Shown: positions 4,701 to 64,000 of the stretch, piece after piece
Layout: the number at the start of each line of letters is the position of its first letter
Numbering within the stretch: the first letter of the stretch is position 1
DNA from: Lingula anatina
Taxonomy: Eukaryota > Animalia > Brachiopoda
Direction of reading: 5' to 3'
Assembly (NCBI GenBank): GCA_051362555.1
Contig: CM120645.1
Coordinates: forward strand, 11,284,001 to 11,348,000
Length of the DNA: 64,000 nt
Translations under genes and position numbers: made by a program
The notes under the pieces: model-generated
Database searches by the model: none
What the model saw: only the letters and a program-made list of their open reading frames with translations
Told to the model about the DNA's origin: nothing

Positions 4701-4859
4701 TATCTCTTCAGACATCGTCACGCTTTCCCCCGTTGATGTTATTATACTCTCCTCGGTGCTAAATGCGTTTGTAATCTCTTCCTTTGCCGTCATCTGTGCT
4801 CGGCAGAGTTGTGCGTCAAGCAAGCAGTACCCAAGAATAAGATAGGCAAGGTGTTTCAT
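521..4859 (-). CDS. Secreted or cell-surface mucin-like protein with calcium-binding EGF repeats (5' part; gene likely continues leftwards)
   Basis: Exons with GT-AG ends and consistent phase 1: 4859-3485 (signal peptide MKHLAYLILGYCLLDAQLCRA + S/T-rich stalk), 3076-2852, 2619-2551, 2307-2194 (EINECDSSPCDNNGTCIDDAANFTCMCVDGYEGITCAH, 114 nt) and 637-521 (DINECERFAPCDNGATCIEGVNNYTCLCSLGYEGRNCSN, 117 nt). These are typical phase 1-1 cbEGF exons. Confidence 0.85.
846..1684. mobile_element. Non-autonomous Helentron/HINE-like element
   Basis: Subterminal inverted repeats AGGATTCCCC (848-857) and GGGGAATCCT (1642-1651). A short internal inverted copy GGGGAAT (861-867) is followed by a TAT microsatellite. 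Internal TGACCTTGACC/AAGGTCA arrays are present. A 3' hairpin ACTGGCT-TT-AGCCAGT (1657-1672) precedes CTAGTT. It lies in T-rich flanks with no TSD. Confidence 0.7.
1683..1737. repeat. (TTA)n microsatellite
   Basis: Pure TTA run directly after the HINE-like element end. Confidence 0.95.
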
Positions 4860-5040
4860 CTGAAAATAAATATTTATGGTGAACCTTTGCTCTTCTTCAA
4901 AGCTTTTTTAAAACCTGTTTTATTCTGTTCACTTATTTATTTATTTATTTATTATTTTTGCGGGTGGGTGGGTGGATGGATGGTGACCAATTCATTAAAT
5001 GTACAAAACGTAAAATGATCTAGAATGCTTACTTCTCCAT
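3165..5040 (-). CDS. Alternative short N-terminus of the mucin-EGF gene (exons 5040-5033 and 3229-3165)
   Basis: ATG GAG AA|gtaagc (5040-5033, phase 2) joins ttgcag|T CTA AAA TTC... TCA G|gttact (3229-3165) to give MENLKFVAAYSIIALSFSSSDNLSG. This is signal-peptide-like and exits in phase 1, compatible with exon 3076-2852. Confidence 0.5.
3495..3685 (-). repeat. 27-bp coding tandem repeat (TSPQQTTAV-like units) in the mucin stalk
   Basis: About seven degenerate copies of GTGGTGACGTCACTGCTGTCGTCTGCT on the + strand. Confidence 0.9.
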
Positions 5041-15016: not shown

Positions 15017-15194
15017 TGACGTCATGGTGCTCTGTCCGTCCATCTGCCTGGTACTGTACTATCACAAAGCAGAGTAGAATATGCAAATGAGCCAACCGCG
15101 GCTTAGCTCTCAGTTATTATGACGTAGAAGGGATCGCCACTTTTACTTCCCTCTCGCAGGCGGTTACTCTTATAAAGGCCCCTGCGAGTCAGTT
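15017..15194 (+). promoter_or_regulatory. Candidate proximal regulatory region of the neuropeptide gene (CRE, octamer, TATA-like)
   Basis: Perfect CRE TGACGTCA 15017-15024, octamer ATGCAAAT 15081-15088, half-CRE TGACG 15120-15124 and TATAAA 15171-15176. A strong acceptor-like TTTTACTTCCCTCTCGCAG ends at 15159, so these motifs could instead be intronic. Confidence 0.45.
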
Positions 15195-15225
15195 GGGTTA
15201 TAATGAAGAAGGCAAGATAAGCGCG

Positions 15226-15789
15226 ATGCATCCCCCAGTTTTGTTTTGTTTCGTATGTGCACAATTCCTTGTTACCTTTTCCTTGGAAACTTTGCCAGTT
15301 GTCTCCTCACTGCAGCAGCTGCCTTACCAGCCACAAGATGATGCAAAGCACGCAGACGACATTTCAACAAATGACGAGAACATGCTGGAAGACCTAGAGG
15401 GGATATTTTTTGGGAGGGAGCCCCCCGAACAACACCATTCTCTCTATCCGGTCGTGAACCAAGACACCTTTGGACTTTATCAGAGATTTGACAAAAGGCG
15501 AGACTTCATGGGCAAACGAAACGCAGAGATGAGTAAACGTAACGAGGCCTTAGCAAAAAGAAGAGACTTTATCGGAAAGAGGCGTGACTTTATGGGCAAG
15601 CGACGGAGTTTTATGGGAAGGCGCTCTGAGGCGGAGGACTTTCCCAAAAGCAGAACTTTAAGTGGCAAGAAGTCAGGCGACGATGCCTATGCACTCCTGT
15701 TAAAAAAGAACCGCGGGTTTATGGGGAAGCGGACCCGAGGATTCATGGGGAAGAGAATCAACTTTCAGGTCACAGAGGTGAGAATGTAG
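15226..15789 (+). CDS. Neuropeptide precursor yielding RxFM/RxFI-amide peptides
   Basis: ATG at 15226 and a hydrophobic signal (MHPPVLFCFVCAQFLVTFS). An acidic spacer is followed by Gly + dibasic flanked repeats: RDFMG-KR x2, RDFIG-KR, RSFMG-RR, NRGFMG-KR, TRGFMG-KR. Single coding exon of 187 aa. Confidence 0.93.
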   Translation: MHPPVLFCFVCAQFLVTFSLETLPVVSSLQQLPYQPQDDAKHADDISTNDENMLEDLEGIFFGREPPEQHHSLYPVVNQDTFGLYQRFDKRRDFMGKRNAEMSKRNEALAKRRDFIGKRRDFMGKRRSFMGRRSEAEDFPKSRTLSGKKSGDDAYALLLKKNRGFMGKRTRGFMGKRINFQVTEVRM

Positions 15790-28151: not shown

Positions 28152-30757
<2,606 letters not shown>

Positions 30758-40428: not shown

Positions 40429-43400
40429 ATGGAAGAGCTTCCGGTTGAGTGTTCGTGCTGCAACAACTGCAAAAAATATAAGAAAAGGATTCTTGTAACT
40501 GGGGGTGCGGGCTTCATGTAAGCTCATTGATAGTCTTTACGTCTTCGAGTGTTTGAAAATATTCGTTGAATAGGGGTAAAAAGGCAAACATTGACACGTT
40601 CATTCATTCATTCATCAGTCGGCAAAGCTGAGGTGACCCGGACATCTGTTTATTTTTTTCAAATTCAGCTTAACAAGGGTTTAGGGGACTGGCCATTTAG
40701 CACAACTCAAGTGCGTGCAGTAAGCCGGAATTTCCACATTTGTTTATACACCGTCTGTGATGATAGCACTGCATTGAGTTTAGATTTAAAACTAAGTTAG
40801 AATCTGAATCTCTAATCTCCTCATTTTTTTCAGATTTAGAAATGATTGCTTGTGGAACAATTAAGAAAGCACATTGTAATGCATTAAGTGTTAGTTTTTT
40901 AATGTAATGTACGGCAATATATCATGTCATACAAGCTGTTTCTTTATTTGTAATTTTGTTCAATTTTGATTTTGCAGAGGTTCACACACTGTTATTCTTC
41001 TTGTGACAAGGTATCCAGATTACTACATTGTCAACCTTGATAAGGTGGGTATTGCTGCAATATTGTAGAGTTGTTGTAAGGATGTTTAAATCCACATTAC
41101 CTTATCATTTTCTTTTCAAAACTGTTATGAATATTTTCAAATATTAAACAGTGTTAAAACAAGCATACCTAGCTATTACATGAAGCAAAACAGTGGTCAG
41201 TGCCTCACATGATGTATATATACATATCCTTGACTGTTTAATTATTCCTGTATAATGTGAGTATTACAGCAGTTATTTTTGTAGATAATTAAAGCATGGT
41301 CTGTCTTTCTAGCTTGATTATTGTGCCAGTGTGAAAAATTTGGAGAGTATCAAAGGAAAGTCAAATTATAAATTTATTCAGGTATGTAGAAATTAAAATA
41401 CCTTAAAGCAAGCAAAAAAGGTAAGGTGCTCACTTATACATATATATGAAGTTTTAAATGTTAATGGAAAAATAAATGAAATTATGATGAGATAATTTTA
41501 AAGTAAGTAAAAATGCACTCTACTGATTGACTTAGGTGTCTTATTCCTGTGCTATGCTTCAATTCCAAGTTTTTGATTAGAATAGATATTCTGGCTTATT
41601 AAGCTACCTCAGTTTTAAAATTGTTTGAAAGGATGGGATTTTTTGGTTCATGCAGACATGCAGCAGAGGCAAACCTGTTTAATGAAGTAATTATAAGCAG
41701 TGTGAAATAAGTGGAAAAACAGAGTTGAATTTTAAGCAGCTGAGTATACTAAGTTATTAAGTAAGAGTTGATTTAGTTGCTGTACACAGGGTAGTTGCAA
41801 AAGAGTCAGTGATCAGAGATTGTTTAAATGTTGTGTTTACAGGGGGATATCTGTGAACCAGACTTCATGCGCTATGTCTTTCAAGAAGAAAGGATTGATA
41901 CAGTTCTTCACTTTGCTGCAGAATCACAAGTTGGTACGCTCATAAATTAATATAAACAGCATGTATTTGTATTTAGTACAATAATTTTATACAGTCTAAG
42001 GATAATGCTTTGACAATATTTTTTTATTTACATCTGGAGATGCCTTAGTTTAAATATTGATTTAAAATTGATTTGTTAAAATTAAAGAAGTGTGCTAAAA
42101 TCCATCTGTTTGTTTATTGTATTTATTTTGCAAACCAATCTCCTGTTTGCAAATTTGAAGCAGTTTGGAGATAAGATTTTTCAAAATTGAACATTTTCAC
42201 CCCCTCAAAAAAAATGGTGAAAAGTTGAAGAAAAGTTTTGCCTGATTGTCCTGTTCCATACTCTTCCAGACATGTCATTCATATATTCACTTGACTTCAC
42301 ACGCACCAACATCTATGGCAGCCATGTTTTGGTGAACGCAGCTTACGAGGCAAGAGTGGAGAAATTTATCCACGTCAGTACAGATGAAGTCTATGGAGGA
42401 AGTAGCACAGAGGTACATTGCCACAAACTGAAAAAAAATTTTGCAACATTTTTATTCTGTAACTTTTTTGTCATCAATTTCTCATATAAAATAAATTTTT
42501 ATAGTGTAACCCTGCTGGTGGTGCATACCCAGTAGGCAGTGATTGGGAAGGAACGCGCCATTGCGCCATACGCGCATAGAATCGTAACTGGGCGCATAAA
42601 AAGCCCTGTTTGTGCGCCATAAGGGCGCGTGATTTTGTTATACCTCGCGTTTTTAAAAAGAGTCTACTCGTCAATAAACTATTCGTCAACTGATTAGCGT
42701 AATTTTCCTCTCATACCTGAAGACGTCTCAGGAACGAATTCGGAAGCTGTCGAACGCAATCGCCGAAGTTTGCCGAGAGCAATGAGCACATCGTCCCAAT
42801 AGATATGCTAATGAAATAAAAGCTGATATCTTATTGGCCAATCGATTTATAGGTCATGTTTATCCAATTAGAAGTAACCTTGTTTTCGTTCTGAAAGTAC
42901 ATGGGATTTTTCAAGCAGCACTTTGGTGAAGTGAAAAGAAAAATGCCGCCGAAATAAGATTTTTAAAATCTCGCCAGACCAGCCTACATTAGTTAGTTTA
43001 TTTACTTCAACCGCTTCGTCTAAGGGTCCGTCCAACGTTCAGGAAGAAGTCTCAAAGGAGACGGGGGAAGAAAATGTACCAACTTCAAGAGCAGCGCTCC
43101 TTGCACTACGACGAGTAGTGACACTGACAGTAGTGTTACTGCTAGTGCTAGCACCTCTCACTCTCAGGTCGCACGAGGTTTCCAACCCCGAAGGCTTCAA
43201 CTATGGCCCTGGCTCCAGTACGACTGCGAACAGTGTAAGAGTTAAGATTCTTGGGAGTAAGACGAGTTATGAGGATGCACTGAATGTGTGGCATAGGGAA
43301 AAGAGATTACGTCATTAAGTAATGAAATCTCTTTTCAGTGAGACCGATTTATAAGTACTAGACAGTATGTGAAGACAATTTCATTTACATTTTCTCAGTT

Positions 43401-46400
43401 TTGAGTAATCAAGGTTTTCAGAGATCTAGATTGTTTACCTGTTGTTGATGGTTTCATCAAATAAAAAACAATTACTTATGAGTATTACATGTTTTCTGAT
43501 CATTTTGTTTTTTCATTTAGTCTTCAAATAAGTTCAGTAAAGAAGGCATTGTAATGGTTTTATTGAAAAAGACAAATAAAACTCTTAACTAAATAAATAT
43601 ATTAACAAAGTTTAACTGCAAAACCTTATCATATTATTCCCAAAAATATTGATACAGATATTTCAAATATATTTGTCATGTTTAAAAATGGCCCATAAAT
43701 GTCAAGCGATGGCCCATTGATATGCAAAATGGCCCATTAAGGGTGACCCAGGAGGGGCCATTGTCCCATGGGTGGTTTGAACCTTCTCAATCACTGAGTA
43801 GGCACTTATACCTTTTTGATCCTCTAGTTCTGGTATTTCATTGTAAATGAGTATATTATGGCAAGTGCAGTATGAAACACTCCTTGTCAAATTTTCTGAA
43901 AGGTAGTTGTTAAGAATACTCTCTGTTGATAGATTATACTGTCCTGAAATTTAGTGCCGAATCTTGAAATGCCCCTATAAAATGTGATGTGTAAGACGTT
44001 TTTATAAATTAATCATCATTGTAAACCTCTTTCTTAGATCAATTTGTCAAGAAGTATCATTTTAGTGGCTTTTAGAAACATGCTGGCATTTTAATGTGAT
44101 AAAGAGAATATTCTCACTCTAAAAGGTGATTTGATAAAAGTTTTTTTTTCATGTTTAAGTATGTAATCTTTTGTATATTCCAATTAACAAAATTAGTTCA
44201 GGTAAACAGTATCTTCATTATTAAGTGTTGAGTGAAAAAAATGGCCACATTCAGAACAGTGAACTAACTAGTCTGATTGTCCAATATGGCTACCCACTAA
44301 AAACTTGCCATCTTATCCGTTATTAAACACTGAATAGATATCCTGTGGGGAAGTATTCAAGTGGGTCAGCCATATTTGACCCTCAGACTAGTTAGTCCAC
44401 TTTTCTGAATGCAGCCAATTACTGCTTTATTCTAATTAGTGCATAACACAGTTGATGGGGTTCTTCTCTGACACCTACAGGTACTGAAAGAAAAATCCAA
44501 CTACAAGCCGACCAACCCATATGCTGCCAGCAAGGCGGCTGCTGAGTGCATGGTGAGATCATATTGGGAGTCATTCAAAGTAAGGCATATCCAGCTGGAG
44601 CTGCTCTTATTTTATTAATTCATTGAAAGGTTACTTAATATGTTCATGCTCATGTAAATATTGTCATTACTGACTTGTCATTTTTGGCATTTTGTCTGCA
44701 TATTGATAATTAATGTAAAGCTGCTCCCATATACAGTGTATGTGCATCCAACTGTGACGGCTCAAGTTCAGGTAGTTTCTGAGTGTGTTTGATAATGTAC
44801 TTGGCAGTAGAGAAGATTGAAATTTGTATTTATAATCTCGTGGTTAACTGAGATCATGGCAAGCTTCTAATCGCTCCCATCACAAATGGACTGTACATAA
44901 TCACTGTAAATAAAGTTTATGAATACTAGGATGATTTTGAATGTTTATAAAGTTTTTTTCCTTGATTAAAACTTTTCATATATTAAATATATAATTTAGT
45001 GAACATCATATTACCACAAATTTAGTGAGCAATTCATAAAATTTGTACGTGATAAAAAGTTTTTTTAAACACTAACTTTAAATTCAGAAAAATGTCAGTG
45101 TGGGTTTGAAGAGTGATGATAATCTCTCCTATTTGCAGTTTCCTGTGATAATAACAAGGTCCAACAATGTCTATGGTCCCCACCAGTATCCAAGATCAGT
45201 ACGTATTATCTTCTCTTAGACCATTCCTCGGTATTCAAACTATGTAGCATAGTATTACCTGCCAATTACACAGCCAATTAGGTCTGTACATAATACATTT
45301 GATATTATTCTAACACTTCGCAAAATTTGCACATTTTAACCTATGAAGGGCCACATCACTGAGAAAAACAGTCATATCCTCTGATTGTTTGAGAAAGTTA
45401 ATGTTACATGATTTTAACACTGTATTCTGTGAAGTTTGTCTCAAACAGTTTTACATGCATTTCCTTGCAGGTCATTCCAAAGTTTATTTCTCTGCTGGAC
45501 AGAGACAAGAAATGGTAGGTAGAAGACTTCTAGATTATGTATCAGAATGCTTGTTTGATTAAAAAGTAAGTACTGCAATAAAATAGAGATATATTATTAA
45601 CTCTTTAATATATGATATGAAAGCTAAAGAATCCAAATTTTCTGTCCTGAAGATAATGCAAGCGAGTAATGTTGAGAGAAATTATATAGACTTCAAGGAA
45701 ATTTTGACAAATGAAATTAAGTTCTTTTTTTACCTCCACAAATATAACACAATCATATTAGATTTTATTAATGAGTTGGACATGATTGCTCCTTCCTAGC
45801 TACTGACAGGCCATTGTACAATTAAAGCATATCCCATATTCATATCAGTATCTCCATTACGTTTCTCTTCTACATCTTCAGCTGTATACATGGCTCAGGT
45901 GACAGTATTCGTAACTTCCTGTATGTGACAGACGTGGCAGAAGCATTTGACACCATCCTCCACAAGGGGGAGCCAGGCGAGATCTACAATATCGGAACAG
46001 ACTTCAACCTGAGCATTTTAGGGTTGGCAAAATACCTTATAAAGAAAGTGAGTATCATATACGTACTAGTTACAACACAAGTAGGATATAATTACGCTTT
46101 TTATGTTGCATACAGTGGATGCAGAGCAGTTGTAACTGACTTATACCACAATCGGCAGTTCAAACAATAGGAAGTGTATGAAAATACAGGCAAGCCTATA
46201 TGGGAAATACAAGTTTAATTATACTTTTTCAGATCAATTGTAGTATTTTTTCTAATTCTCTGTTAATATAGCTGAAGGGCATTACGACAGAGGAGGGCAT
46301 GCAGCGGTACCTGGATTTTGGGGAAGACAGGCCTTTCAACGACTACAGATACATCATGGACTCCTCTAAGATTGCCAACCTTGGCTGGCAGCCAAGAGTC

Positions 46401-49209: not shown

Positions 49210-50418
49210 ATATTATGTCAAAATATATGTAGTCGGGCGATACAATAAATTATTTATGAAATAATGGGCTTGTTATTTCTCAGCTACTCGATAAGGCTTT
49301 TTACTGGGACATTTTTGAGTCTAATCCCACATGTTCCAGTTATAAAATAATGTGTTACCGATATAAATGCGTTCTTGTCATTGACCTATACAACCCCAAG
49401 TGAGTGAAAGGAATGAACTGTTATTTCAAAACCATAGACCAAAGACCCCCTTCACATAAAGACTCCAGGTAATAGGCCTTGCTTAGACCACATTTCAGTT
49501 AACTTGGATAGATGACTACGTAAATCGAAGCAAGATCAAGCAAGGCTGACGGCTTGTGTCATTCGCGTGGTATGCATTTTACCAAAAGAATATTCAATAA
49601 AACTTGGTGAATTCCTGTCTAAATGTGTTCCAGAATCTCGCTGACCATATATACTACTGTCATAAACTCAAAATGCTCTCCATTTATTATCCGCGCAAGA
49701 TGATTGAAAAAAGTATTTTAGATGATAGTACGTAAAGTGTAGCATAACTGAGATAATATCCAATGTTCACATAATTTATTATATCCTTGCTGCAAATGGC
49801 ATACAGGTAAAATTTTGCAAAGGTTAAGGTGCCCAAGTTATTCCTGCTCTTTATATGTGCCCCGCCAAAATATGTACTTTGCGTAATGAAATGTTACGTC
49901 GGTGAAAACACTGCATATTTTGAAAAGGGGAACCATAAATTATTTGAAATTCAAAACACGAATTTGAGAGATATGATGGATTTAAATAGATGACTGTTTT
50001 TCAGCTTGGCCCAGCCATGTGCACGGCTGCAAATTTGACGAGCTAAACATTAAAATAACACTTAAAATAATTCTTGTGACCAACCCTCCTCGTTTTTCAT
50101 TATCCCATTATGATTATTCATATATGAATTCACTATATTATTTAAATGTATTTTCAAATAACTTTGGTGAAGTAACTCAGTTTGGTGCTGTGCACTCTTG
50201 ATAATCATCAGACGTGTACAAGTTTTAGTCAAAATCAATTGGTCGATGAGTTTATCCACTGTTTATCAGTGGGAAGGCATCACTGATTTTTGAACTCATT
50301 ACAATAAATATGACTTATAAAATGTTTTCATGAAGCGTGTTCGGTAATTTCCAAATTAAGCTGCACCCAAAGCAACTTTGTTTTGTATTGATTTTTTAAA
50401 TGAATAATAATTTTTTTA

Positions 50419-53400
50419 TCAATTTCGAAACTCAACAATTTCATAAACATTGCTGCCACTTCGAGTTGCAAAATGAGACGAACAATCAAGTGCTTTGCTG
50501 TTGTTGCTGTATCCTGATTCGCTGAGGGGCGCATTGTTGCGAGGCAACGCGTACACGTGACCCTCTTCGCCGCCAGGTGCGCAATGGTGCCGTATCGTGG
50601 ACGTTCGTTCCCCCTCGTTGGGCGTGGTCATAAGTTCCAGATAATCGCAGTTTTCTCCAACATGCGTGTTGCAATTGTGCGTGCCAAGCTGGTTCACGTA
50701 AGTCGGGGAGAAAGCAGAAGAGTTGTAATATATGTTATCCTGAGCATCGCCAGCTGTAGGGCTTCTGGCAGCGCCGCGGGCATCAATCGGATCATAGTAC
50801 CCGCCAGCGTCGTCGAAGTCCGTGTTACTCTCATCCAGGGGCGGGGCGCTGGCAAGGACCTGGCTGCGCACTGAGACGCGGGAGTCGTCGATTGATGCAT
50901 AAAGGTTCGACACGCGCTCTGGATCAATGTCTGTTGGTGCCAGGTAAGTCGTTGACGGGTGGTTGTTCAAGTGACAAGACGAGCCCTCAAAGAAGCTGAA
51001 TTCGCTGTTCCAGCTCTGTCCCGTGAAATTTGGGGGTCGCTGCTGCTGCAGGGCATCACTGTCGATGTAGACGTTCGACGTACTGTTAGTGAAGTCCGGC
51101 GAAGCAGAGGCCCCGTCGGTGACGGCGATTGTTGGTAAAACGCCCTTATAAACTGGATTGTTCTGAGATGAAATGGATGCAAGAAAACTTTGATTAAAAA
51201 ACTATATATGATCAATATATTTGAAGGGTGATCGATAAATAAGATTGCAGTATCGATTTTTTTCTAAACAGAAATGTGCTAGGCATGTTGTTTTTTTTTC
51301 AGAAGCATTTGCTCCGAGAAAAAATAAAACCCACAGCAAACGATGAGCATTTTCTGATGCTATTTGCTGCCAGCACACTTACCTGTAGAGTTTCTGTCCT
51401 TTTGGTGCTGAACCTTTCCGGCAATCGTATTCTGTAAAAGAATTAAATACATTAGGCGTAACTCACTTATTAAAAAAGTAAATAAAACCGACATAGAATT
51501 AAGTCTACATAAGTTCTTCATATCCTTTAACAGGGCAACAGAGCATTTTCAACAGATATTCAGAAATATTTCTCTGGCTAATTTTGTTCAAATTTCTGTA
51601 CTGTGGGAAACTGTGCGAAAAGAACAAATGACGTCAGCATCCAGATACAGTAGCTCCCTCCAGCGGTGGGAGGAGCAGACTGACACTTCAGTCTTCGTTT
51701 CTGTGACGGGAATTATTTCCCTACCCCAAGGCAACTTACTTTAGCAATGTTGGGAGGCCAAGTAAAATTTGTATTTTGATTACCAGAACATTTTAATGAA
51801 TGACCTCCTGTGGTTGAACAATGTTTTTTTTTATACTTTGAAATTATCTTGTGGAAACGTCTTGCAGCATAAAGACCGTTATTCGCGCAATAAGAAATAT
51901 AAATACAAATAACAATTCGATTTACATGACTTAGCATAAAAAACCAAAAACGAAGCATCAGAAAAGAAAAATAAAATATTTGTGACAAACCAAAAAGTGC
52001 ATCTAACATTCAGCTCGCCACACCCCATTTTAATTGATTTTAATTGTTCGGCGGAAGATGAGCGGTCGAAACCTTGTGATGCCTTTCTCGTAGAGATTCA
52101 GCATGAAATGGCCTTGGGCCGTGATTCATGTAAGCTGATTTATATACTCAGTATATTATTTATTTATTTATTGTGACTGTCAATACCTTGCGGGTATAGT
52201 GGATGTCGTGAAGAGATTGAGTTAAGATTAAAACGCACTGAGTCACCCTAGGGACACCTCCATTGTTGCCGACCTTCCCCCTGTGTTATGTGTTTCATGA
52301 AATTATCACCGTGCAACTTTGTATAGAAGGTATTTACTGGCTGTTAAACTTAAATAAATATCTTCATATTCTAAGGGAATCAAAGAGAACTATAAACGTT
52401 AAAAAAGAATAAAACTTGGCCATGTAATAAAATGAAATATGATAATTTATTATAATTGTCAATGGTCTAAACTGGTGGATGAACGGAAATTCATATCGGT
52501 GCAAGGAAAAAGGCTAAGGGACCGACAATTTGTCCTTAACCAAAATTTGGATAGATGGAATACTTTGACCAGTGTAAATATCATACCAGATATTATGAAT
52601 ATATTGCGGTAATGGTATGAGGAAATTATAGGTAATGACCGCGCTCTTTTTACTTACTTCTGCTTTTTCAAGCACACTATGAATAGAGCTGTAGAAAGAA
52701 TGAGGAGGGCAGCGAAAAGCAGCCCCACAACTACTCCTGTCACAACGCCGGTAGAGATCGCACCGTTGCCAACTTTTTCACCGCCTTCATCTGCATAAAA
52801 TACATGAAAAACAATTAAAACATGATTTTCAAAGACCACATGTAATTGGCTTTCACGAATATAGTATCCATTATATTTTAATTCGCGTGCCAATTAAAGG
52901 CAATTTGTGTTTTTTAAGTACCACTCAGTAAGTATCCCAATCAATACCATACAATGGCAAAAAGATTGGCCCAAAACTAATGTAAATCACTTCATACTAG
53001 AAACCATTACCTTTCCCGTCACTTGTATCATTCGCTGGTTCAAGGTCGGGTGTTCCTATTTTGTTGACGCCCCACGCCGCTGTGGTTGACGAACTGTCTC
53101 CATCTCCTTTCTGAGTTGTCTTTCCCGACGGATCTTCATTGGAAGCAATATCTATCGAACCGTCGGATTGTGTACCATCCGGATATTCAATACCTGGCAA
53201 TCCGTCCAGAGAGAGACTACCACCAGATGAAGATCCGGTTGATCCTTCATGAGAGAAGGAGTCAGCAGAACCGCCGTTATTCGTAGATTCGTCTGTCCCC
53301 CCATGTATTCCGTCTTTAGGAGATTTTTCTGTCGATGTGGGTTGCGTATTCTGTTCACTCTGCCCTGTTGGTGCACTGGGTTTAACTTCTATGTTCCCTG

Positions 53401-55110
53401 GCTCTACTGTTGTTTCCCCTGGCCCTACTGTTGTGCCCCCCACTGCTGTGTCCCCTGGTCTCACTGCCGTGCCCCCTGAACCTATTGTTGTGTCCCCTGA
53501 CTCCAATGTTGTGACGCCTGGCCTCACTGTTGTGTACCCTGGCTCCACTGTTGTGTCCCCTACTGTTGTGTCTCCTGGCCCTACTGTTGTGTCCCCTGGC
53601 CGCACTGTTGTATCCATAGTTTGCGTTGCCTCAGTGAATGCAAATGGCGTAGGAGTAATTTTGGGAGTTGTTTCCAGATTAACACTGGAAGTCGTGGGAA
53701 TCGTTTTTGAAGTTGTCGTTGCTTCATTTTGGACAGAATTTGCAAGAATTGTCGTGATAGGAGTAGTAAGTATGTTCATTGTCACTGTTGTGGGCTGAAT
53801 TGTAGCTGTGGTTGGGTTCGTTACAGGGGATTCAGTGACCGTCAAAGGGGCCGCAGAAGTCTTCAAGAGAGTCGATGTTGAAGTATCTTTCCAAAGGGTC
53901 GAGGCTGAATTAGTGATCAAAGGATCCATTGTTGTAAAGTTGGCTAAATGAATTGTTGTCGGTGGCGGCATTGTTGTGTGAGCTGCCGGGTAACTTGCAC
54001 TAGTCTCTAGAGGGTTCGTTGAAGTAGCCGCCAGAGGAGTCGTTGAAGTAGTCAACACAGGAGTCGATATAGTTGTTACCAGTAGAGGCCTTGTAGTTAT
54101 TGCCAAAGGAGTCGTTGAAATAGTCGTTGGAGGAGTCGTGGTACTTGTCACCAGAGTAGTTATTGTTGTAGTCGCCAGAGAAGTTGTAGTAGACACCAGA
54201 GGAGTAGTTGTAGTCACCAGAGGAGTAGTTGTTATAGTCACCAGAGGAGTTGTTGTTGTAGTCACCAGTGGAGTTGTTGTTGTAGTCGCCAGAGGAGTCC
54301 TCGTAGTAGTCGCCAGAGGAGTCGTTGTTGTAGTCGCCAGAGGAGTCGTTGTAGTCACCAGAGGAGTAGTTGTTGTAGTCGCCAGAGGAGTCGTCGTAGT
54401 AGTCACCAGAGGAGTCGTTGTTGTAGTCACCCGTGGAGTCGTTGTTGTAGTTGCCAGAGGAGTCGTTGGTGCAGGAAATGTCGTAGAAGGAGTTGTCGTT
54501 GGAGGGTCCCGAGGAGGTTTTGGCTTGGGCTTGCGCTTAGCTGAAAACGATAAAAACACTTAAGGTTCGATAATTTGCAAAAGCTAACATTCGAAAAATA
54601 TTTTCCCCGATTCTTTTATAAATATAAAATATTTATCTTAATACTACTGAAAAAAGTCGACACTTGTAGAGCATACACATACAATGTACGGGGGCAAAAT
54701 TTGCAAAAGTTAACTGTCAGTTTGTCTTTGCAAATCGGTGTCAGATAGTGATTGGTACTGTCGGCCGGAAATAAATCAAATGAGTGTGATAATATGAAAA
54801 AGGAAATTAGTTGCTTGTGTTAAGCCATTATATTTCACTTCTGTACAATTTCATAAACTTTATTTACTTCACTTTTTAATATTTTACTAAAGACGTACTA
54901 AAATAAGAAAATCTTATGTAGCCTTTAGATAATAAGTATTGCAAATGCTTTGCCTAATTCTTGATCTCTCTTCATTTCTTATAAAAAAGAAACAAACAAA
55001 GGCAAGGGAAAAGAGAAAGTCTTACGTGCGTATATTCCTTGGACGTGAAGACTTAAAATCCAGATTATGAAAAACGTTGAAATTGACACAAGTTTCCGAC
55101 GTCTTGGCAT
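50419..55110 (-). CDS. Type I transmembrane mucin-like protein with tyrosine-motif-rich cytoplasmic tail (about 846 aa)
   Basis: Exons 55110-55026 (signal MPRRRKLVSISTFFIIWILSLHVQGIYA), 54540-53011 (T/P-rich stalk), 52790-52658 (TM ISTGVVTGVVVGLLFAALLILSTALFIVCL-KKQK), 51431-51383 and 51162-50419 (NNPVY... to stop). Phases 1,1,2,0 are consistent; total 2541 nt. Confidence 0.88.
53395..54470 (-). repeat. Coding tandem repeats: 21/24-bp TTTTPL(V/A) array (about 54000-54470) and 21-bp PGDTTVx array (about 53395-53610)
   Basis: Repeated GTAGTC(A/G)CCAGAGGAGT and CCCTGGC...ACTGTTGTGT units on the + strand. Confidence 0.9.
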
Positions 55111-55837
55111 TTTCTGTAAAGATACCATGTTCCTGATTTTCTTTGAAGTTATCACCTAACGATAACAAAACCCAAGATGAGCAAACACCGTCGTCTTCAT
55201 ATCGTCGCGCACTTGTAAGCTGTCCTAAGCTGCTGTAGACCCAGTTTTACCAGGACTTTCAGGTAAACGACGCAGCCAGTTTTGTGGAACATCCACCGAT
55301 CGACACCAACAAATTTCTTCAGTTCGCACAGGTGTGTCCAAATTAAGATAAAGAGTGACTGATTAAGGACTAAATTGTCCGTGAAGAAGTTTGTCCACTG
55401 TGTCATATGACTCTGTGTGTTACTGTCGTCACGTGTGTTACGCCTAAGGACAAAGAAGCCTCGTCTTCAAGGATATATGTAGAGTTATGTATTATGCTCG
55501 AGCTGTATATATATTGATGCGATAAACATGAAATTTATGTTGCCTATGCTCCAAACAGTGGTGAGGCAGAGCATAAAAAAATGCTAGATTGCGCGCTGTA
55601 TTCACACAAACATGGGTTTGATATATTTAACTTTCACGAGACTCAGACATTCTTTTTGAAAATCATGGATTATATTATGAAATGATCTTATCTTACAGAT
55701 CTTGTGTTCGACTATTATGACCAACGGTCTACATATTAAATAGCTGTCACCTTTCGTTGTAAATTAAAAGATTAATAGCGAACTTTATGCTCGTCACCAA
55801 GCGAGGGAAGAGAATTTATGTCCATCATGCTTGTACC

Positions 55838-55856
55838 ATAAAATAAATAAATAAAA

Positions 55857-55899
<43 letters not shown>

Positions 55900-55900
55900 A
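55838..55900. repeat. (TAAA)n microsatellite
   Basis: Long AAAT run. A (TG)n run also lies at 56388-56428. Confidence 0.9.
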
Positions 55901-56387
55901 GTAAAGAATATCTTGTGACATTACGGAATATGTTCTTACTGTGTTGTTGGTCAAGGCATGACACTGTTTTGTAACTTGCGACTTTCAAACCAAATAGCCG
56001 TGGGTATCAATGCGGACATCACTTATTCTGAGCAGTGGGTTGGATGACGCATATATACGTATAGGTGCGGCCGTATTATAGTATATATACAGACTGGCTC
56101 ATGTTAAATATGGTAAAACAATGTTCAGAATGGTTTACGGGTGTGAGGTGGTCATTTAAAATAAAATAATAAAATAGATAAAATAAAATGGAAATAGAGA
56201 TGGGACAACATTTATGACCAAGTCTGTACATGTACCCCCGGTACGTGTATGTGCAGGCACCGGTATTGAAAATGAAAGAAAATTTTATTTACGCCGACCA
56301 TGTTTGGGGCACGCCAAAAACATTAACGTGTACATAAAAGGACAATTTTAAAGCATTGTTTATTAGCATCAATTCTAGCGCGCGCCA

Positions 56388-56422
<35 letters not shown>

Positions 56423-56891
56423 TGTGTGAGCGTGAATGTTTGCAATGTGTCAACGTTAGAAAAAATAAAGACTGAATAAAGCATTGTAAAAAACAAAATC
56501 ATTTATTTGATAAATTCATAACAGCTGAGAATACGAATCTTCACTAAACGTGTGTTCTTACTGTTATCTAAACGAGTATTTATCTTTAATTCTAAACAAT
56601 TATTGCATGAAAGTAATAAATTCTATTAGGACATTGACATGGAACTTGAAATGTATTTAATAACTTTAGAAGTAATTAAGGCATTCATACTTGTAAGAAA
56701 TATATGTTCCAATCCACACTTGAATTTGACACTTACAAAAACAAAAAATATGCAAATGTCAACGGAAAGAATCAACCCAAACGTAAAATTGACATAATAT
56801 TATACTGTGCAGTGTGTTTTTTGCTATAAAGATGCGAGTCATCTCGTTGAAGTGGTTGTCAGAACTTCTGTCACGCCACTGCAGGCATCAT

Positions 56892-59800
56892 CTAGGCGCA
56901 TGCGCCGTTTTTATTTCGTATTTGCTGAAATGAAGCGAGCAAGGTATAAAATGAAATATGAGCTCTAAAGGCAGCAATTTTTAAGGTTGATATTCTTAGT
57001 TAAAATTATTATATTATATTCAACCAACAAAATTATCTTCTTTGACTAGAAACAGATTTTTTGCATATGTGAAATGCTGTAACTTATTAATAAATACAAC
57101 TCGCATTACAGTGCTAGATATTGTTGAAAAGGAAAGCTGACCTCTTTCAAGGAAAAATTCTTTTTAAAATATCAAAACTCCCTTATTCAATTGACACTTT
57201 CATCCACTTTTTTTCTTCTTGAACGACCAACTATTTTGACAATTTCGTCAATTTTTTTGTATACTTTTAAAAATATTTTGCCAGCAAACAACCAGACAAA
57301 ACAAAGCCGATGCAAGTATCTTCCTTCGTGCATATATACAAAGATAGCCATTGTGAAAATGAAACGTTGAATAGAGACATGTGGGAGATAAAGCATTATT
57401 TTCATATAGTACTTGAAACTATCCAATGATGAAGAAAAATCTCGTCGTCTTATTGGCAAATTGATTCTGATTTGGAAAAAAAAAATCAAGAAATCTTACC
57501 CAATGGTCCCAGGTCCTTATCTCAGCGTACATGGCAGCGCCAGGACTCACAAACCCGGACACCTGGCAGTGAGCGTATATGACATAATCCTGGGTTAATT
57601 TTCCTAAATACGCCCCATACTGCAGCAGGCGACGAGCAGTTAAGATTGAGGAATTTGGCGGCAAACTCGTTTCAAAGTTGCCCGTGAAACCAATGCCTAT
57701 GCTATCGTAGTTCCACCTAATGTCGAAAAAAACTTTTACTCTAAATCTAAATCTGTCTGCACCTTACAGTTATCGACTCAGTGTCACTTGGGACTAGTAG
57801 ACCCCAGAGAACCTCAAGGACTATTAATTTGAAACTAAATGTAGATATATAAATATCGGAAATTAAGTCAAAACAATAGCTACTAAACTGACTGGTGATT
57901 TCATATCACGTTTTTTTTTAAATTTCAACGTCAAAACTACTAGTCGTTTGTATCTCAGACCGCTGGCAAACATAGTAGACATAATAGCTGTGACTGGTGA
58001 GGTTAAAATATTTAACCAAATATTTAAACATTTGACTTATGTGAATTAAATTTCTTATAGATTCCAAAATATTTAGTATGCACTATCAGAAAACTGTGCC
58101 AATGCGAACACCAATCTGTACTTGAAATGCTTCTTTTCTGTAAAGTTTATATATCGGGGTATATTAAGCAAAAATTGATCCAATATGTTACCAGTCGATT
58201 ATATTCAAGTAGTCTGGGAGACGGGCACTCGGCTAGATATTTACCCTCTTGTATGTCTTCCTATTTGGTCCCATCCTGTCCCTTCATATACCACTCCATC
58301 TCCACCGACCATGAAGTTGTACCCTATGTCACCCCAGCCTGAAACAGCCATTGAAACGTATTTACACTGTTTCACACGATTCCAGTCAATAAGATAAATC
58401 CCTTTACACGCGATTTCAACCCTGACCTTTTTTTTTTTTTTTTTTTTTTTTTGGGGGGGGGGGGTAGTGACTTCCTGATTTACAAGAAAAACCAAGGTAA
58501 AAAAACTGTTTCCAAGAAAGAACACATTTTAAACGATTAAGAATTAAGCTGATCACGCCGGAGAAAAAAATCTTTGCAAAGTGGTGAAAATTGCGAATAG
58601 TTTATAACGTGTGTGGAAAATTCAAAAGGTACAAGTTTCTTCCCGTTTGATTATTTAATAGCTGTGTAATATGTCTAACAAAACTGAATTTTAAAATTAT
58701 AAATAACAATCATCTAATTTTATATAACAAGCAACGAAGAATTTGAAAAAATCCTTAATAGTGTGTAAAATACCTCGAGCTTTCATGTGGAATTTCTGTG
58801 TCCATTTGACTTCCATGCAGCAATAGCTAGTGCCGTTACAGCGGGCCCCTGCCGTATGAGCTATGACGGCGTAAGGGACGGGTTGAGTTCGGTACGGGTA
58901 CTCCCCAAGAGGAGCTTTAGCTCCCCAGCCATCTCGACTAACGAAAGGAAATTCGACTTGCTTACCTACAGAATAAAGTTTCCAAATAATTTTTTTTAGA
59001 AGTGGGTTTATTTATCTTATATGTCACAGGGATACCAGCAGTTAAGATATACAGTGTATATTTCATGTCAAACGCATTAAATTCAATATATTAAAAAAAA
59101 CAATATTTTTGTACAAAACGATTTCAAAATCAATTATCAATATTGCGTATGGAGCTATCAATAAAGAAGTAAATGTAGCTCGATAATAAAAAAGACTTTA
59201 GATGACCTCACAGCACAAAATTACCTTTCCACCTGAAGGTAATATTTTCAGGTGTAACCTTCTCACACACAGAGGTAGGGGCGTGGTCGTAAGGTGGCGT
59301 TTCATTTGAATGAACGATGAATGAGACAGCCAAAATAACAGCGACTGTTGTTGAGACTAGTACTGCAGTGATGGCCACGTAAAGACGTGCCCTTCGTCGC
59401 TTAGCAGTTGCCTTCGCGTCCTCTTTATCTCCAGTACTACATTCCGTTTGTAGAATATATTCGGGGTTTCCACCAAGGCGACGCAAAGGGTCACTGAGAT
59501 CATTAAAAATAGTCTCAAAATTTTCCACCTGAATGTTGTTTGGGCTCACAGCAGATAATCTGTGGCAAAGGTCTTTTATTCTGATCACGTCGTGTTCCGG
59601 CTTTGAATCGTCTTGATTCGACAGTGTTGACCAATCCGCGTCCTTTAGTGCTATGTTTTTAACAAGGATGTACAGCAGGGACAAGTCCATATCATGTATG
59701 TTAATGCTCCCCGAGCTTGGGCAAAGTAAAGAGAATTGCTTTTCAGTTAAAACATTGTTGTTCCTCAATACCTTAAGAACGCTCAGGTTCTGCGGTTTCT

Positions 59801-60567
59801 CTAGGAAGGCCTGCAGTTGGCGCGTTTTAATTCCGCACACCTTTGTGAAATAGTCTCTCATGCATCGCGTGCATTCGTTTATGGTTCGGGCGTACAATTG
59901 CTCGCTTGTGCATCTATCTAAAACACGACAATATATTTTAATGTGAATCTTATATTACAACGGCTAGGTTTTTTGTTTATTCAGTTTAACCCTTCCTGTG
60001 TTTTGCTTTATTTCTTTCTAACTTCTGTTTCAAAATGTTTGATTCACTTTCCCTTGGCGTAAGATAATTTCACTACTAGTACCCCGGTATGTATTCATGG
60101 CCGAAAAATGAACAGTAGCCTAAATCATTTAATTCTAACGCACATTTTCATTTAACTATAACTGTTGTTAATAAAGCGTTTAAACATGCACTAGTAAAAA
60201 CACTTACGCTGATACATTTCCAACGTACGCATTACTTACATTTTATAAGAAATTCCTTCTGTCTCGATTTTATATCCGACTCCAGTGGGGCTTCTACATC
60301 TGTGTCTATGTTAATCACCTCGACGACGTCTTGGCGACCTATTTCCGAGCATATCTTGCACAAATCCACTAATAATTCGTCGTCTGCTTTACCAGACTTG
60401 TGTTTATAGCTAAGCAGAACACTTTTTGTAGGTTCAGCTTCTCGCTCCAGTTTGCGGATTTCGAGGAAGGTGAATCCCATTCTATGTGCCACCATTCTCC
60501 AATCGTTCCCAAACACGTCTGTGGGGTCCAACAGAAGTGCAATTTCCTGTAAGGTCTTGTAATCCAT
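56892..60567 (-). CDS. Type II transmembrane PGRP with N-terminal Death domain and DZIP3-like HEPN domain (about 518 aa)
   Basis: Exons 60567-60240 (death domain: [32 protein letters not shown]), 59917-59225 (HEPN-like: [38 protein letters not shown]; then KRRRAR + [26 protein letters not shown]), 58965-58774 ([25 protein letters not shown]), 58338-58245 ([27 protein letters not shown]), 57716-57500 ([33 protein letters not shown]) and 56924-56892 ([10 protein letters not shown]; least certain, read-through would stop at 57419). Phases 1,1,1,2,0 are consistent; total 1557 nt. Confidence 0.88.
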
Positions 60568-63081
60568 CTTTCTTTGATAATAGTCAGATTGGAACGTAGT
60601 AGGTTGCTTCAGATTCCGGGTATAAAAATGTCCCCTTACGAGCCTCAGTTATACACATTGGATGACGACCTTTAAGTGCAAGTCACAAGATTTTCGCTGT
60701 GAATTGACATGGTAAAGGATTGCCTAAACTCGCAACTGTAATTCAGAAACCACTGGGGTTGATTTTCTTCCTGAAACGGGAATAGATTAAGTGCGCAGTT
60801 TTCTGCGTCTGATTCATGTCACGTACGGTGTCAAGATCAAGCTAGTAAACTTCCAACTTGAACAACGTACGATAAAAGTCAAAGTTGAGTCACCGCACTG
60901 AACAGAGCGCAATCCTAATATAAATCAGGAAACTTAATATAGGTCAAAAGCATAAAAACAGGTCTTTCTGAGTATCATTGTTCTGGTTGGCCACAAACAA
61001 AAGGCAGTGTCTGTGTTAGTGAGGTCGACTTTACTGAATTACATAAGCAGGTACACAAAGTGCTAACTCTCTAACCCTACAGATTTGTGGGTCCTGAATA
61101 GCAAATTAGGATGATGGGACCCTTAAGTGTTATTAACGTTCGACCTCTGTTGCCGCGTCTTGCCAAATGAGAAAGAAATAAAAAACCAAAATCATAATCA
61201 AAGAAATGCAATCATCGGCGTAATAAGGTCCAGTAACTCGTTAATGTGCACACCTTTAAATATCCACATGCTTTTAAACATATACTTACATCAGCAGCAT
61301 TCTCTTCTTCCCGGATCTGAAGTTGCAATGAACTCACGTCACTGGCAAAACACACAGACTCTGGCAGGACTTAAATAGTTCCGTTTAAGAGAGGTCAAAA
61401 AGGGAGGTCATGAAATGCGCGTGCAGATCGTAATATGGAAACTTGGGTCAACAGCTTGCGTCATTACGAAGAGTCACGAAACTTTTGTTACCCAAAATTC
61501 ATTACTTAGAAGTAGATTCTTAATAATAATAATAATAATTTATTTCTTCTTCCCAGGACATAATGAAACGAAATATAGCAAATCAATGTCTTTCTATTTT
61601 ATAATATAATATCATATAATTTTTTTTACACATTTTTAATCTCGTTGGCACTCAGAAGGAATATAATTCTGAACAGATATACAGCATATGTGTATTCCGA
61701 CTTTGTCATTATCTGTAAACTTTTAGTTACGCCAAAGTAATTCTCCATAAGTGATATAAGTGCGCCCTTTGCTTAACAGTGCACATTCACTGAATTTGAT
61801 TCGCTTCGGTATGAATGCAATAAAAATTAATGAATTCTACAATAGATGCGAAATATTACTCAACCTAACTGGTAGGACCAAGGATTAAGGCAGAAAAACA
61901 TATCAGGGCTCAAAGGTGGTTGTCCTATCCTCAGAACATTGTGCATATCCAACAAATCACTCACCAGACGAGTCCTGTGTCTACGAGCCCCCTTTTGACC
62001 ATCGATGGACCATCTTGATTCAGCTAAACCACATTGATTCCAGTGCTGGTTGAGCAGGTTCCGGTGTAACGAAACTGAGGGCCCATGTAACCGAAAGTCC
62101 GCCCTCCATATAGTTTTTATGGTTAGGGTTATCCTGACCTAATTGGGTCCAAATCTAGGGCGCGGCTTACCTGTAGAAATGGGGGACTCTGTTACGTTAC
62201 ACCGGTGCCCCTGGACCCCTTACCGTAACATTCTCAAAAGATGTCTTCCTTCATTTGCAAAAGGTGACTTCAGGGATACCACAGACTCTACCGTGATAAC
62301 GCACATGCACAAGGGCGTTGTCGGGTGAGTGATTAGGTGCAGAAACCACAGCCGTCTTTGGTTATATTGTTATATTGTTCGTTGTTGTGAATCTCCAACC
62401 ATTCTGAGAAAACTTTTCCAAGTAGAACAGTTCCGTGAAATCACATTTAATTACTTTTCTATTTTCAGTGCATTTCCAAACTTAAAATTTCGGAAGCAAA
62501 CACAAAGGAACATTTATTTTTTATTAATCTGAGCAAGATGCAGCATATACAGGTTTCTGCAACGTCATTTTCTGTAAACGTGGTTGTTAATCGCTATAGT
62601 AACGAGCACGATGAGTCCTTTATTGAAAAGATTTATTGTTCACCAACACCACCAAAACACATATGTTCCCTTAGCTGTCTGACTACATTATACACCACCT
62701 ACTACTGTAAATGCCACTATAAATGGATAACAGTGGATAATAGAGTGATAAAAAAATAACGTTTTAACCTAGTTTTCACTCTGACCTTGATTAAGCCTTA
62801 TATAGCCCTTATATTAAGCGTGAAGGCAAATATCAACGCAATCTGATCTCACCCAAAGCATTCTTGCTCATGTATCCCAATAAGTCAGACGTTGACCATG
62901 CAATAACAGGATGAGGAGAATTTGGTTTCCGAAAGTGCAGCTTTAAATACATACTGCTATAATAGTACATAAGGGAGATACCCTAACTCAAGCGGATGGT
63001 TATCATAAGTATGATACCATAGGAGACCAATGTCGATAATGAATATGCAGTGAAATCCAGGGTGGCCAACGCATGCTGCTA

Positions 63082-63134
63082 AATCGCACTTGGTTCTGAA
63101 CATAAGGTGGGCCATTGTCATTCCAGTATGGCCT
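63082..63134 (-). pseudogene. Remnant duplicate of the 3' end of the SGNH-like gene
   Basis: 27 bp (63108-63134) are identical to 63624-63650. It translates GHTGMTMAHLMFRTKCDL versus GHTGMTMAQLLFRVICDY* in the intact copy. Confidence 0.7.
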
Positions 63135-63592
63135 TAACATTACTGTGATTAAACCGGTCTTATTTTTGTGTACACTGGTTAAACATACCGTATAGATCGA
63201 TAGATCGATCGGGAATAAAACAAGTAGATGAAAATAAACTAATTTTTTTAAAATTCCAGCCTTTTCCTAAAAGTGAATGTCTACAGTCTGCTGCTTAACA
63301 GTAAAAGTGTATTGTTTCAAATTCACGTCGATAAAAATACAATCATGGTGAACAACAAGAAATATGGGCTCATCTTTGTTGATTCTTCTATTGCTGTGAT
63401 GAAAACAAAAATACAAGCAATCACGGCCTCGTCCTCGTAGGGTTTTGTCATCATATATATATGCCAACTATCCTAACTTTATGGCCAAACATCAAATACA
63501 TGAACTCAAAAACCGATGGCGACGACAAGCATTTGTTTTTATTAGAGAGATGATGCTATGACATTGGGGTAGTAAGTACCGGTGTGTGTGTG

Positions 63593-64000
63593 TTAATAAT
63601 CACAGATAACTCGAAATAAAAGTTGGGCCATTGTCATTCCAGTATGGCCTGATAAATGTCTTGGGTCGTTCCCTATTGGACATAAATAATGTGCACCGTC
63701 ACACTGGGTCCATTTCATTGGGTTGAGAATATTGAAACCGTCTATTACTTCTACACCATATTTTACCAGCTTCTCTCTGATGATTCCGTTGACCGCTGCA
63801 ACCATGTAATCATTTCCATCCCTTTCGCCATAAACTCTCGGCAGAATATTAAGATATATAAGACGGATGTTTGCAGTGTTGGGGTTTTCCCGCAGAACGC
63901 CTAGGAACTCCACAAAATGGGGAATAACATGTTTTACAAGATTGTAGGCACTCTCGTTTATATTCGCCATATGGTGTATCCCAAATCCCATTAATATAAC
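63593..64000 (-). CDS. C-terminal part of an SGNH/PC-esterase-like hydrolase or O-acyltransferase (5' part outside the window)
   Basis: Open frame to the edge with G.G.H.., ..V.A.N.II.E.L..GV.VID.F and DGAH (DxxH catalytic loop), then a terminal helix ending LLF.VIC. This layout resembles the NXPE/PCED/CPED-type SGNH C-terminus. Confidence 0.7.
   Translation of the reverse strand, partial: VILMGFGIHHMANINESAYNLVKHVIPHFVEFLGVLRENPNTANIRLIYLNILPRVYGERDGNDYMVAAVNGIIREKLVKYGVEVIDGFNILNPMKWTQCDGAHYLCPIGNDPRHLSGHTGMTMAQLLFRVICDY

Follow-up and report, generated by a model that had tools for sequence, protein, structure and literature searches.

Animal peptidoglycan recognition proteins (PGRPs) are known in three roles, as amidase, as bactericidal protein and as NF-kB receptor, and in insect PGRP-LC peptidoglycan clusters the outer domains. 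Ire1 joins an outer sensor, one membrane helix and an inner HEPN domain, and HEPN domains of the DZIP3 type are greatly expanded in molluscs and cnidarians. We analysed a 64,000-nt window of the brachiopod Lingula anatina (contig CM120645.1), in which a PGRP gene lies on the minus strand; all coordinates refer to this whole window. The product of the gene (the window protein) carries a death domain, a DZIP3-type HEPN domain that has lost its catalytic motif, a predicted transmembrane helix and a PGRP domain. The gene is best read as a pseudo-nuclease copy whose ancestor was, by prediction, an Ire1-like membrane RNase triggered by peptidoglycan.

The closest described domains are the DZIP3/hRUL138-like HEPN domains (PF18738; Anantharaman et al. 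2013, PMC3710099), which the window protein resembles in its full-length profile match, its scaffold and its death-domain fusion. That family mostly conserves its Rx4-6H motif (194/202 in pearl oyster; PMC9646362), whereas the window protein has lost it. Ire1 and RNase L, which are KEN-type HEPN RNases, share the coupling of a sensor to a HEPN output, but the window protein has no kinase, a DZIP3-type rather than KEN-type domain, a PGRP sensor and a predicted type II orientation, and its HEPN is predicted to be dead. Ire1/RNase L members fuse a kinase or pseudokinase to KEN; the near-identical Lingula anatina RefSeq protein P0001, whose Pfam content is Death, HEPN_DZIP3 and Amidase_2 only, has neither, and the comparison would serve as a works-like analogy for the intact relatives, not as membership. 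To our knowledge, none of sacsin, Swt1, MtlR and Roquin is part of a membrane pattern-recognition receptor. Human sacsin, Swt1, MtlR and Roquin also have motif-less HEPN domains (PMC3710099). Drosophila PGRP-LC, the best Protein Data Bank (PDB) match of the outer domain, is likewise type II single-pass with Ser for the zinc Cys; the inner part of the window protein, in contrast, holds a death domain and HEPN rather than RHIM-like motifs, and Thr replaces the Arg that binds diaminopimelic acid (DAP). RHIM-bearing PGRPs are reported absent from molluscs and brachiopods (PMC9835746).

The first-pass annotation had placed a HEPN domain with a kept scaffold and a missing RN-H motif between the membrane and the death domain, and each of these elements was borne out. 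PF18738 matches at 92.1 bits (cut-off 27, E 3.7e-26, model positions 2-141 of 144), which makes the domain a DZIP3-type HEPN, and all 62 matches of a phmmer search of 1.84 billion representative sequences carry PF18738. The minus-strand frame at 59469-59915 reads as annotated, including the 12 protein letters at 59547-59582, and the spliced product places the domain between the death domain and the membrane helix of the PGRP protein. Motif columns were counted in 61 homologues (the 62 matches minus P0001; its twin P0063 was also excluded). The catalytic Arg is present in 56/61, the Asn in 51/61 and the His in 53/61; the homologue survey that the annotation had called for found Rx4-6H starting at the catalytic Arg column in 51/61. 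The window protein has neither the motif Arg (Cys227) nor the motif His (Ala232) of an active HEPN domain:

59469..59915, minus strand: HEPN_DZIP3 domain, residues 111-259, predicted catalytically dead (Pfam, alignment, AlphaFold2).
59565..59567, minus strand: Cys227 at the catalytic Arg position (P0063 has Leu; Arg in 56/61 relatives).
59562..59564, minus strand: His228 in the polar +1 column, not the catalytic His (an Owenia relative likewise has His).
59550..59552, minus strand: Ala232 in the catalytic His column (His in 53/61 relatives).
59580..59582, minus strand: Arg222, the scaffold Arg of a D/N-x-x-R helix motif (Arg in 60/61 relatives).
59898..59900, minus strand: Gln116 in helix 1, a third basic residue lost (Arg in 10/10 chosen subfamily members, alignment A3).

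HEPN RNases depend on the motif His and, where tested, also on the Arg (PMC3710099, section 6). In our judgement the domain itself is very probably inactive as an RNase. Restoration of the motif by RNA editing was rejected, as four runs showed no difference at 59550-59552 or 59565-59567 among 40 of the 42 rows listed.

The annotation had also pointed to an alternative register, R-I-K-D-L-C-H (Rx5H), by which the domain would still be an RNase acting through Arg222 and His228. Its spacing is compatible with Rx4-6H, it is the sole such pattern in the 149-residue domain, and both residues are constant in the window, P0001, P0063 and the reads of RNA runs X8 and X9. An Rx4-6H pattern, however, arises in 45% of 10,000 shuffles of the domain, which is chance level. 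Arg222 is present in 60 of the 61 aligned relatives, 50 of which carry it together with the true motif; it is therefore a scaffold residue also found in active relatives and not a replacement catalytic Arg. His228 falls in the +1 column, where Owenia P0003 has His within an intact motif. In the AlphaFold2 model, R222 and H228 both lie within a single helix (residues 216-232, ending at A232), whereas in the model of the motif-intact Lingula protein P0030 the last helical residue is 133, which leaves the motif His, H134, just outside. We rejected the register on these grounds, and residual RNase activity through these residues is very improbable.

Non-cutting binding of RNA or nucleotides, which would add a second, cytoplasmic input to the receptor, bears on the same residues. 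Motif-less HEPN domains have been proposed as nucleic-acid binders (PMC3710099), and R222, K224, H228 and R229 still lie near the old site; yet the conserved Arg at columns 116 and 227, which we infer to be the likeliest phosphate contacts, is gone in both, and we consider such a role quite unlikely.

The AlphaFold2 model of the HEPN domain is all-helical, with a mean predicted local distance difference test score of 90.2. VIA-align ranked Csm6 first (Z 7.1, root-mean-square deviation (rmsd) 3.7, 115 aligned), Roquin second (Z 6.7, rmsd 3.9, 93 aligned) and the sacsin HEPN fourth (Z 6.5, rmsd 2.8, 86 aligned), with more HEPN entries lower down and MtlR among the fold matches; all have Z <8, the reliability level for helical bundles, and stand level with unrelated bundles. 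Foldseek gave no match at E<=0.001 for the HEPN model, and no HEPN match in a PDB profile search was significant. It is sequence that carries the HEPN assignment, the fold searches being only suggestive.

Despite its lost motif, the domain is conserved. Ten subfamily members were chosen by eye, the dead paralogue P0005 not among them, and a column was called conserved if at least 9 of the 10 shared a residue and the window protein covered it (n=18). Thirteen of the 18 are kept (T126, L160, L174, P176, D187, L190, L194, N197, W205, H218, D219, R222 and R256) and five are altered (R to Q116, G to C125, R to C227, N to H228 and H to A232). Between the X8/X9 reads and the window, positions 59440-59920 hold at least 29 near-fixed differences (28 from 40 of the 42 rows listed, plus one from the splice letters). 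With each of three double-hit codons split into one synonymous and one non-synonymous step, these comprise 18 synonymous changes over 102 sites and 11 non-synonymous ones over 375, a ratio of non-synonymous to synonymous rates (dN/dS) of 0.15 (binomial p 2.4e-6). The dead HEPN domain is under purifying selection and is therefore retained for some purpose. From C227 to A232, X8/X9 reads show no amino-acid change at a depth of ~10-15 among 40 of the 42 rows listed. The dead motif is shared by window and reads, whether the latter stem from a sister population or from a gene duplicated recently. Over 55500-64000 of the window, runs X7-X9 differ by ~6% of coding DNA, against ~1% for X4 and X6 under the same species label, a pattern suggestive of a cryptic lineage within Lingula or of a duplicate that has diverged.

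That purpose could be purely passive: a folded spacer kept because its unfolding harms the receptor, doing no pairing or regulatory work. The HEPN branch of the window protein is long (0.84-1.15 changes per column), its linker to the membrane is shortened, and the old Arg column varies between Cys and Leu among near-identical copies, all of which fit a spacer. A dN/dS of 0.15, however, is tight for a passive element, and two long-diverged dead paralogue types retain the whole domain rather than deleting it; we give the spacer little credence.

The gene is spliced and expressed. RNA-read mapping defines six exons whose spliced frame is open and encodes 518 residues, differing from the Lingula anatina RefSeq proteins P0001 and P0063 at 18 and 24 positions. 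All five introns are backed by RNA-read joints. Runs X4, X7 and X9 each show four of them, whereas the joint of the death-domain exon with the HEPN exon appears in X7 and X9 only; run X1 has scarcely any coverage of the gene. No second copy was found within the 64-kb window. Pfam assigns Death (7-85), HEPN_DZIP3 (PF18738; 111-259) and Amidase_2 (367-488). The TTG at 59897, first annotated as a start, is internal: its exon begins at 59917 and is spliced onto the death-domain exon. The open spliced frame and the same motif in reads rule out a pseudogene or assembly error. The remaining parts of the gene are:

60240..60567, minus strand: coding part of exon 1 (ATG start from RefSeq P0001; joint with exon 2 in X7 and X9).
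60313-60549, minus strand: death domain, residues 7-85 (Pfam Death, E 2e-13).
59225..59917, minus strand: exon 2, which runs from the HEPN domain through the linker and transmembrane helix into the outer part (RNA-read joints; AG/GT ends).
59373..59468, minus strand: HEPN-to-membrane linker of ~33 residues with a basic cluster at its end (sequence comparison).
59316..59372, minus strand: predicted single transmembrane helix, residues 292-310, N terminus inside (hydropathy and charge).
58774..58965, minus strand: exon 3, first part of the PGRP domain (RNA-read joints, PGRP alignment; Ala376 for the first zinc His).
58245..58338, minus strand: exon 4, PGRP (Tyr411 retained; Thr425 for the DAP-binding Arg).
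57500..57716, minus strand: exon 5, PGRP (His485 retained; Ser493 for the zinc Cys).
56891..56924, minus strand: coding part of exon 6 and stop codon (joint 56924/57500 in X4, X7 and X9).

The transmembrane helix has a hydropathy of 2.45 over 19 residues, with six K/R before it and one after (computed on P0001); the charge difference therefore predicts a type II single-pass protein with the death domain and HEPN inside and the PGRP outside. The death domain, whose best match in a PDB search is MyD88 (E 2.3e-6), lies on the inner side of one predicted membrane helix, as in death-domain signalling receptors. The outer domain belongs to the PGRPs (Amidase_2 E 5.4e-15; best PDB match PGRP-LCx, E 4.7e-42). 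Aligned to amphioxus PGRP3, it keeps His485 and Tyr411 and departs from an amidase at Ala376, for the first zinc His, and Ser493, for the zinc Cys; in alignment A1 the Cys is Ser in 7/7 members and the first zinc His is kept in 0/7. PGRPs lacking the zinc Cys lose zinc and almost all amidase activity (PMC8124813), and such losses mark non-catalytic, receptor-type PGRPs (PMC8124813, PMC4610682). With two of its three zinc ligands gone, the outer domain is predicted to be a non-amidase PGRP. Relatives retain the Arg linked to DAP-type preference, in place of which the window protein has Thr425. An Arg-to-Thr mutant of amphioxus PGRP3 lost ~35% of its activity on DAP-type substrate (PMC4610682), so a possible shift in peptidoglycan preference is a lead only.

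The intact-motif paralogues that the first-pass annotation had envisaged do exist, and they share this build. Besides the gene's own copies, four phmmer matches, one with a cluster mate, join HEPN_DZIP3 to PGRP through a membrane helix. P0003 of the marine worm Owenia fusiformis has a death domain, a HEPN with R-H-x3-H intact, a membrane helix and a PGRP; Lingula P0005 has the same order but no longer the motif. Two other Lingula proteins, P0030 and its cluster mate P0064, are without a death domain and keep R-N-x3-H (Rx4H) ahead of the membrane helix and PGRP, and P0033 is a HEPN-membrane helix-PGRP protein without a death domain and with the motif intact. Five further matches (P0010, P0019, P0044, P0045 and P0048), some of them on short contigs, carry an intact HEPN and a membrane helix and end soon after. 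The membrane-linked HEPN domains form one branch of 14/63 rows, with a Shimodaira-Hasegawa-like approximate likelihood ratio test (SH-aLRT) support of 90 or 99 depending on the model; the trees were quick ones without bootstrap, and the limits of this group were set once the first tree was in hand. Eleven of its rows are motif-intact and the three dead rows are Lingula death-domain proteins: both Lingula death-domain paralogue types, the window gene and P0005, are dead, and P0030/P0064, lacking the death domain, are intact. As 11 of 14 are intact and one loss suffices on the tree, the intact motif is likely ancestral and the window gene would be a derived pseudo-nuclease. Among the three death-domain-bearing proteins, identity is 44-49% in the death domain versus 26-33% in HEPN, which makes the death domain the best-conserved inner part and supports a signalling role.

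The family range is a lower bound. Word-index protein searches were insensitive: some returned P0001 only, and another, which scored 7,998 candidates, yielded 4 proteins and missed P0030 and P0033 even though its query alignment included them. A metagenome locus search with P0014 alone found no relative. ESM Atlas gave no usable match for P0030 and, for P0003 160-400, leads under 0.9 only, to HEPN_DZIP3 and DUF4559 clusters.

Active and dead types are both present in Lingula, and the dead copy could therefore act as a brake or tuner, pairing with an active P0030/P0064-type paralogue and spoiling or re-aiming the joint RNase site. Las1 chimeras, which need both motifs for activity and fidelity (bioRxiv 10.1101/760058), lend the idea some force. 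Yet HEPN identity to P0030 is only 28%, the linkers differ (33 versus 56 residues) as does the specificity residue (Thr versus Arg), and the well-kept death domain would be left unexplained; we regard a brake as unlikely. Among the other relatives, P0002, P0004 and P0037 are tandem-HEPN proteins whose best-matching copy is without the motif; an R-N motif is seen in the second copy of P0002 and of P0004, and such a dead-plus-live chain parallels this heterodimer idea. P0015 combines HEPN_DZIP3, its motif His replaced, with a kinase and an RNase L/Ire1-type KEN, giving two HEPN-type domains per chain.

On balance, we favour a reading in which the dead DZIP3-type HEPN is likely kept as a structural, probably pairing relay in a single-pass receptor whose predicted ligand is peptidoglycan and whose predicted output runs through the death domain. 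As in insect PGRP-LC, peptidoglycan would draw the outer PGRP domains into clusters, and the membrane helices would then bring the inner HEPN domains together. HEPN RNases work as two juxtaposed motifs (bioRxiv 10.1101/760058; bioRxiv 10.64898/2025.12.03.690598), so ligand clustering would switch on the intact relatives by building a two-motif RNase site in the manner of Ire1. In the window copy, clustering would only align the dead HEPNs and position the death domains for adaptors of the MyD88/IRAK or FADD/Imd type; on this view the Lingula death-domain copies would have given up the RNase output while their signalling continued. More broadly, and tentatively, since we rate it a little short of even, there may be a brachiopod and annelid family of single-pass receptors in which a non-catalytic outer PGRP switches on an inner HEPN RNase, making it a kinase-free counterpart of Ire1/RNase L that responds to peptidoglycan, with some members adding a death domain, those of Lingula being pseudo-nucleases and the outputs being split between paralogues.

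Several points weigh against the relay. Purifying selection indicates that the fold is kept and says nothing on function, and the fold evidence is itself weak alone, given the Foldseek result and a best VIA-align Z of 7.1. Certain HEPN families without the canonical motif have been proposed to use other residues (PMC3710099). The single-loss node has an SH-aLRT of 83 with long branches, and the replacement residues differ between the dead types. Owenia P0003 pairs a death domain with an intact motif; death-domain gain therefore does not force RNase loss. In the P0030 model one helix (176-234) starts on the HEPN side and continues across the membrane. The linker of the window protein, at ~33 residues versus 46-56 in nine relatives, is 13-23 residues shorter, and this shortening could abolish the rigid coupling that the P0030 model predicts.

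DZIP3-type HEPN fused to death or NACHT domains, dead HEPNs and brachiopod membrane PGRPs are in print (PMC3710099, PMC9646362, PMC8260672, PMC9835746). No description of a HEPN-membrane helix-PGRP fusion was found in the passages covered, those of PMC9334734, PMC7773633, PMC7308585, PMC8476170, PMC12403961 and bioRxiv 10.1101/2025.07.21.665930 among them. Prior notice of death-domain PGRPs, in Gerdol et al. 2018 on Lingula immunity or in the supplements of PMC3710099 and PMC9646362, is quite possible. No RNase assay of a DZIP3-type HEPN was found in the passages covered, and PMC9646362 terms the motif a putative active site. The relatives in Lingula and Owenia that keep both catalytic residues point to a family, probably not described before, of receptors that would cut RNA in response to bacteria.

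Other features of the window include, at 62600-64000 on the minus strand, the upstream neighbour of the PGRP gene, GDSL/SGNH-like by eye and without a Pfam match; it is covered by X1 and without X4, X7 or X9 coverage, the reverse of the PGRP gene. Directly downstream, on the same strand as the PGRP gene, lies a gene at ~50400-55130. Two long exons rich in Thr/Ser and mucin-like, together with one rich in Tyr motifs that resembles a receptor tail, occupy 3471-4907, 50419-50970 and 52997-54559 on the minus strand, without Pfam matches. On the plus strand, an open reading frame at 15091-15789 resembles a neuropeptide precursor, without a Pfam match; its repeated (D/G/S)F(M/I)G-KR units would yield short amidated peptides. 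A cysteine-rich exon at 21515-21832 matches Pfam Prokineticin (E 1.5e-5), and exons of an Arf GTPase and an NAD-dependent epimerase/dehydratase lie at 29722-30081, 42221-42535 and 45826-46170, also on the plus strand.

A dead HEPN alone is ordinary, and the importance of the window gene lies in the family that it exposes. The likely trigger can be purchased and natural active and dead paralogues stand side by side, which makes the family directly testable. Its death-domain members may offer an NF-kB route to the lophotrochozoan membrane PGRPs that are reported to be without RHIM motifs. If true, the coupling of a PGRP to a predicted RNase on the other side of the membrane would bring a new effector logic to animal antibacterial immunity.

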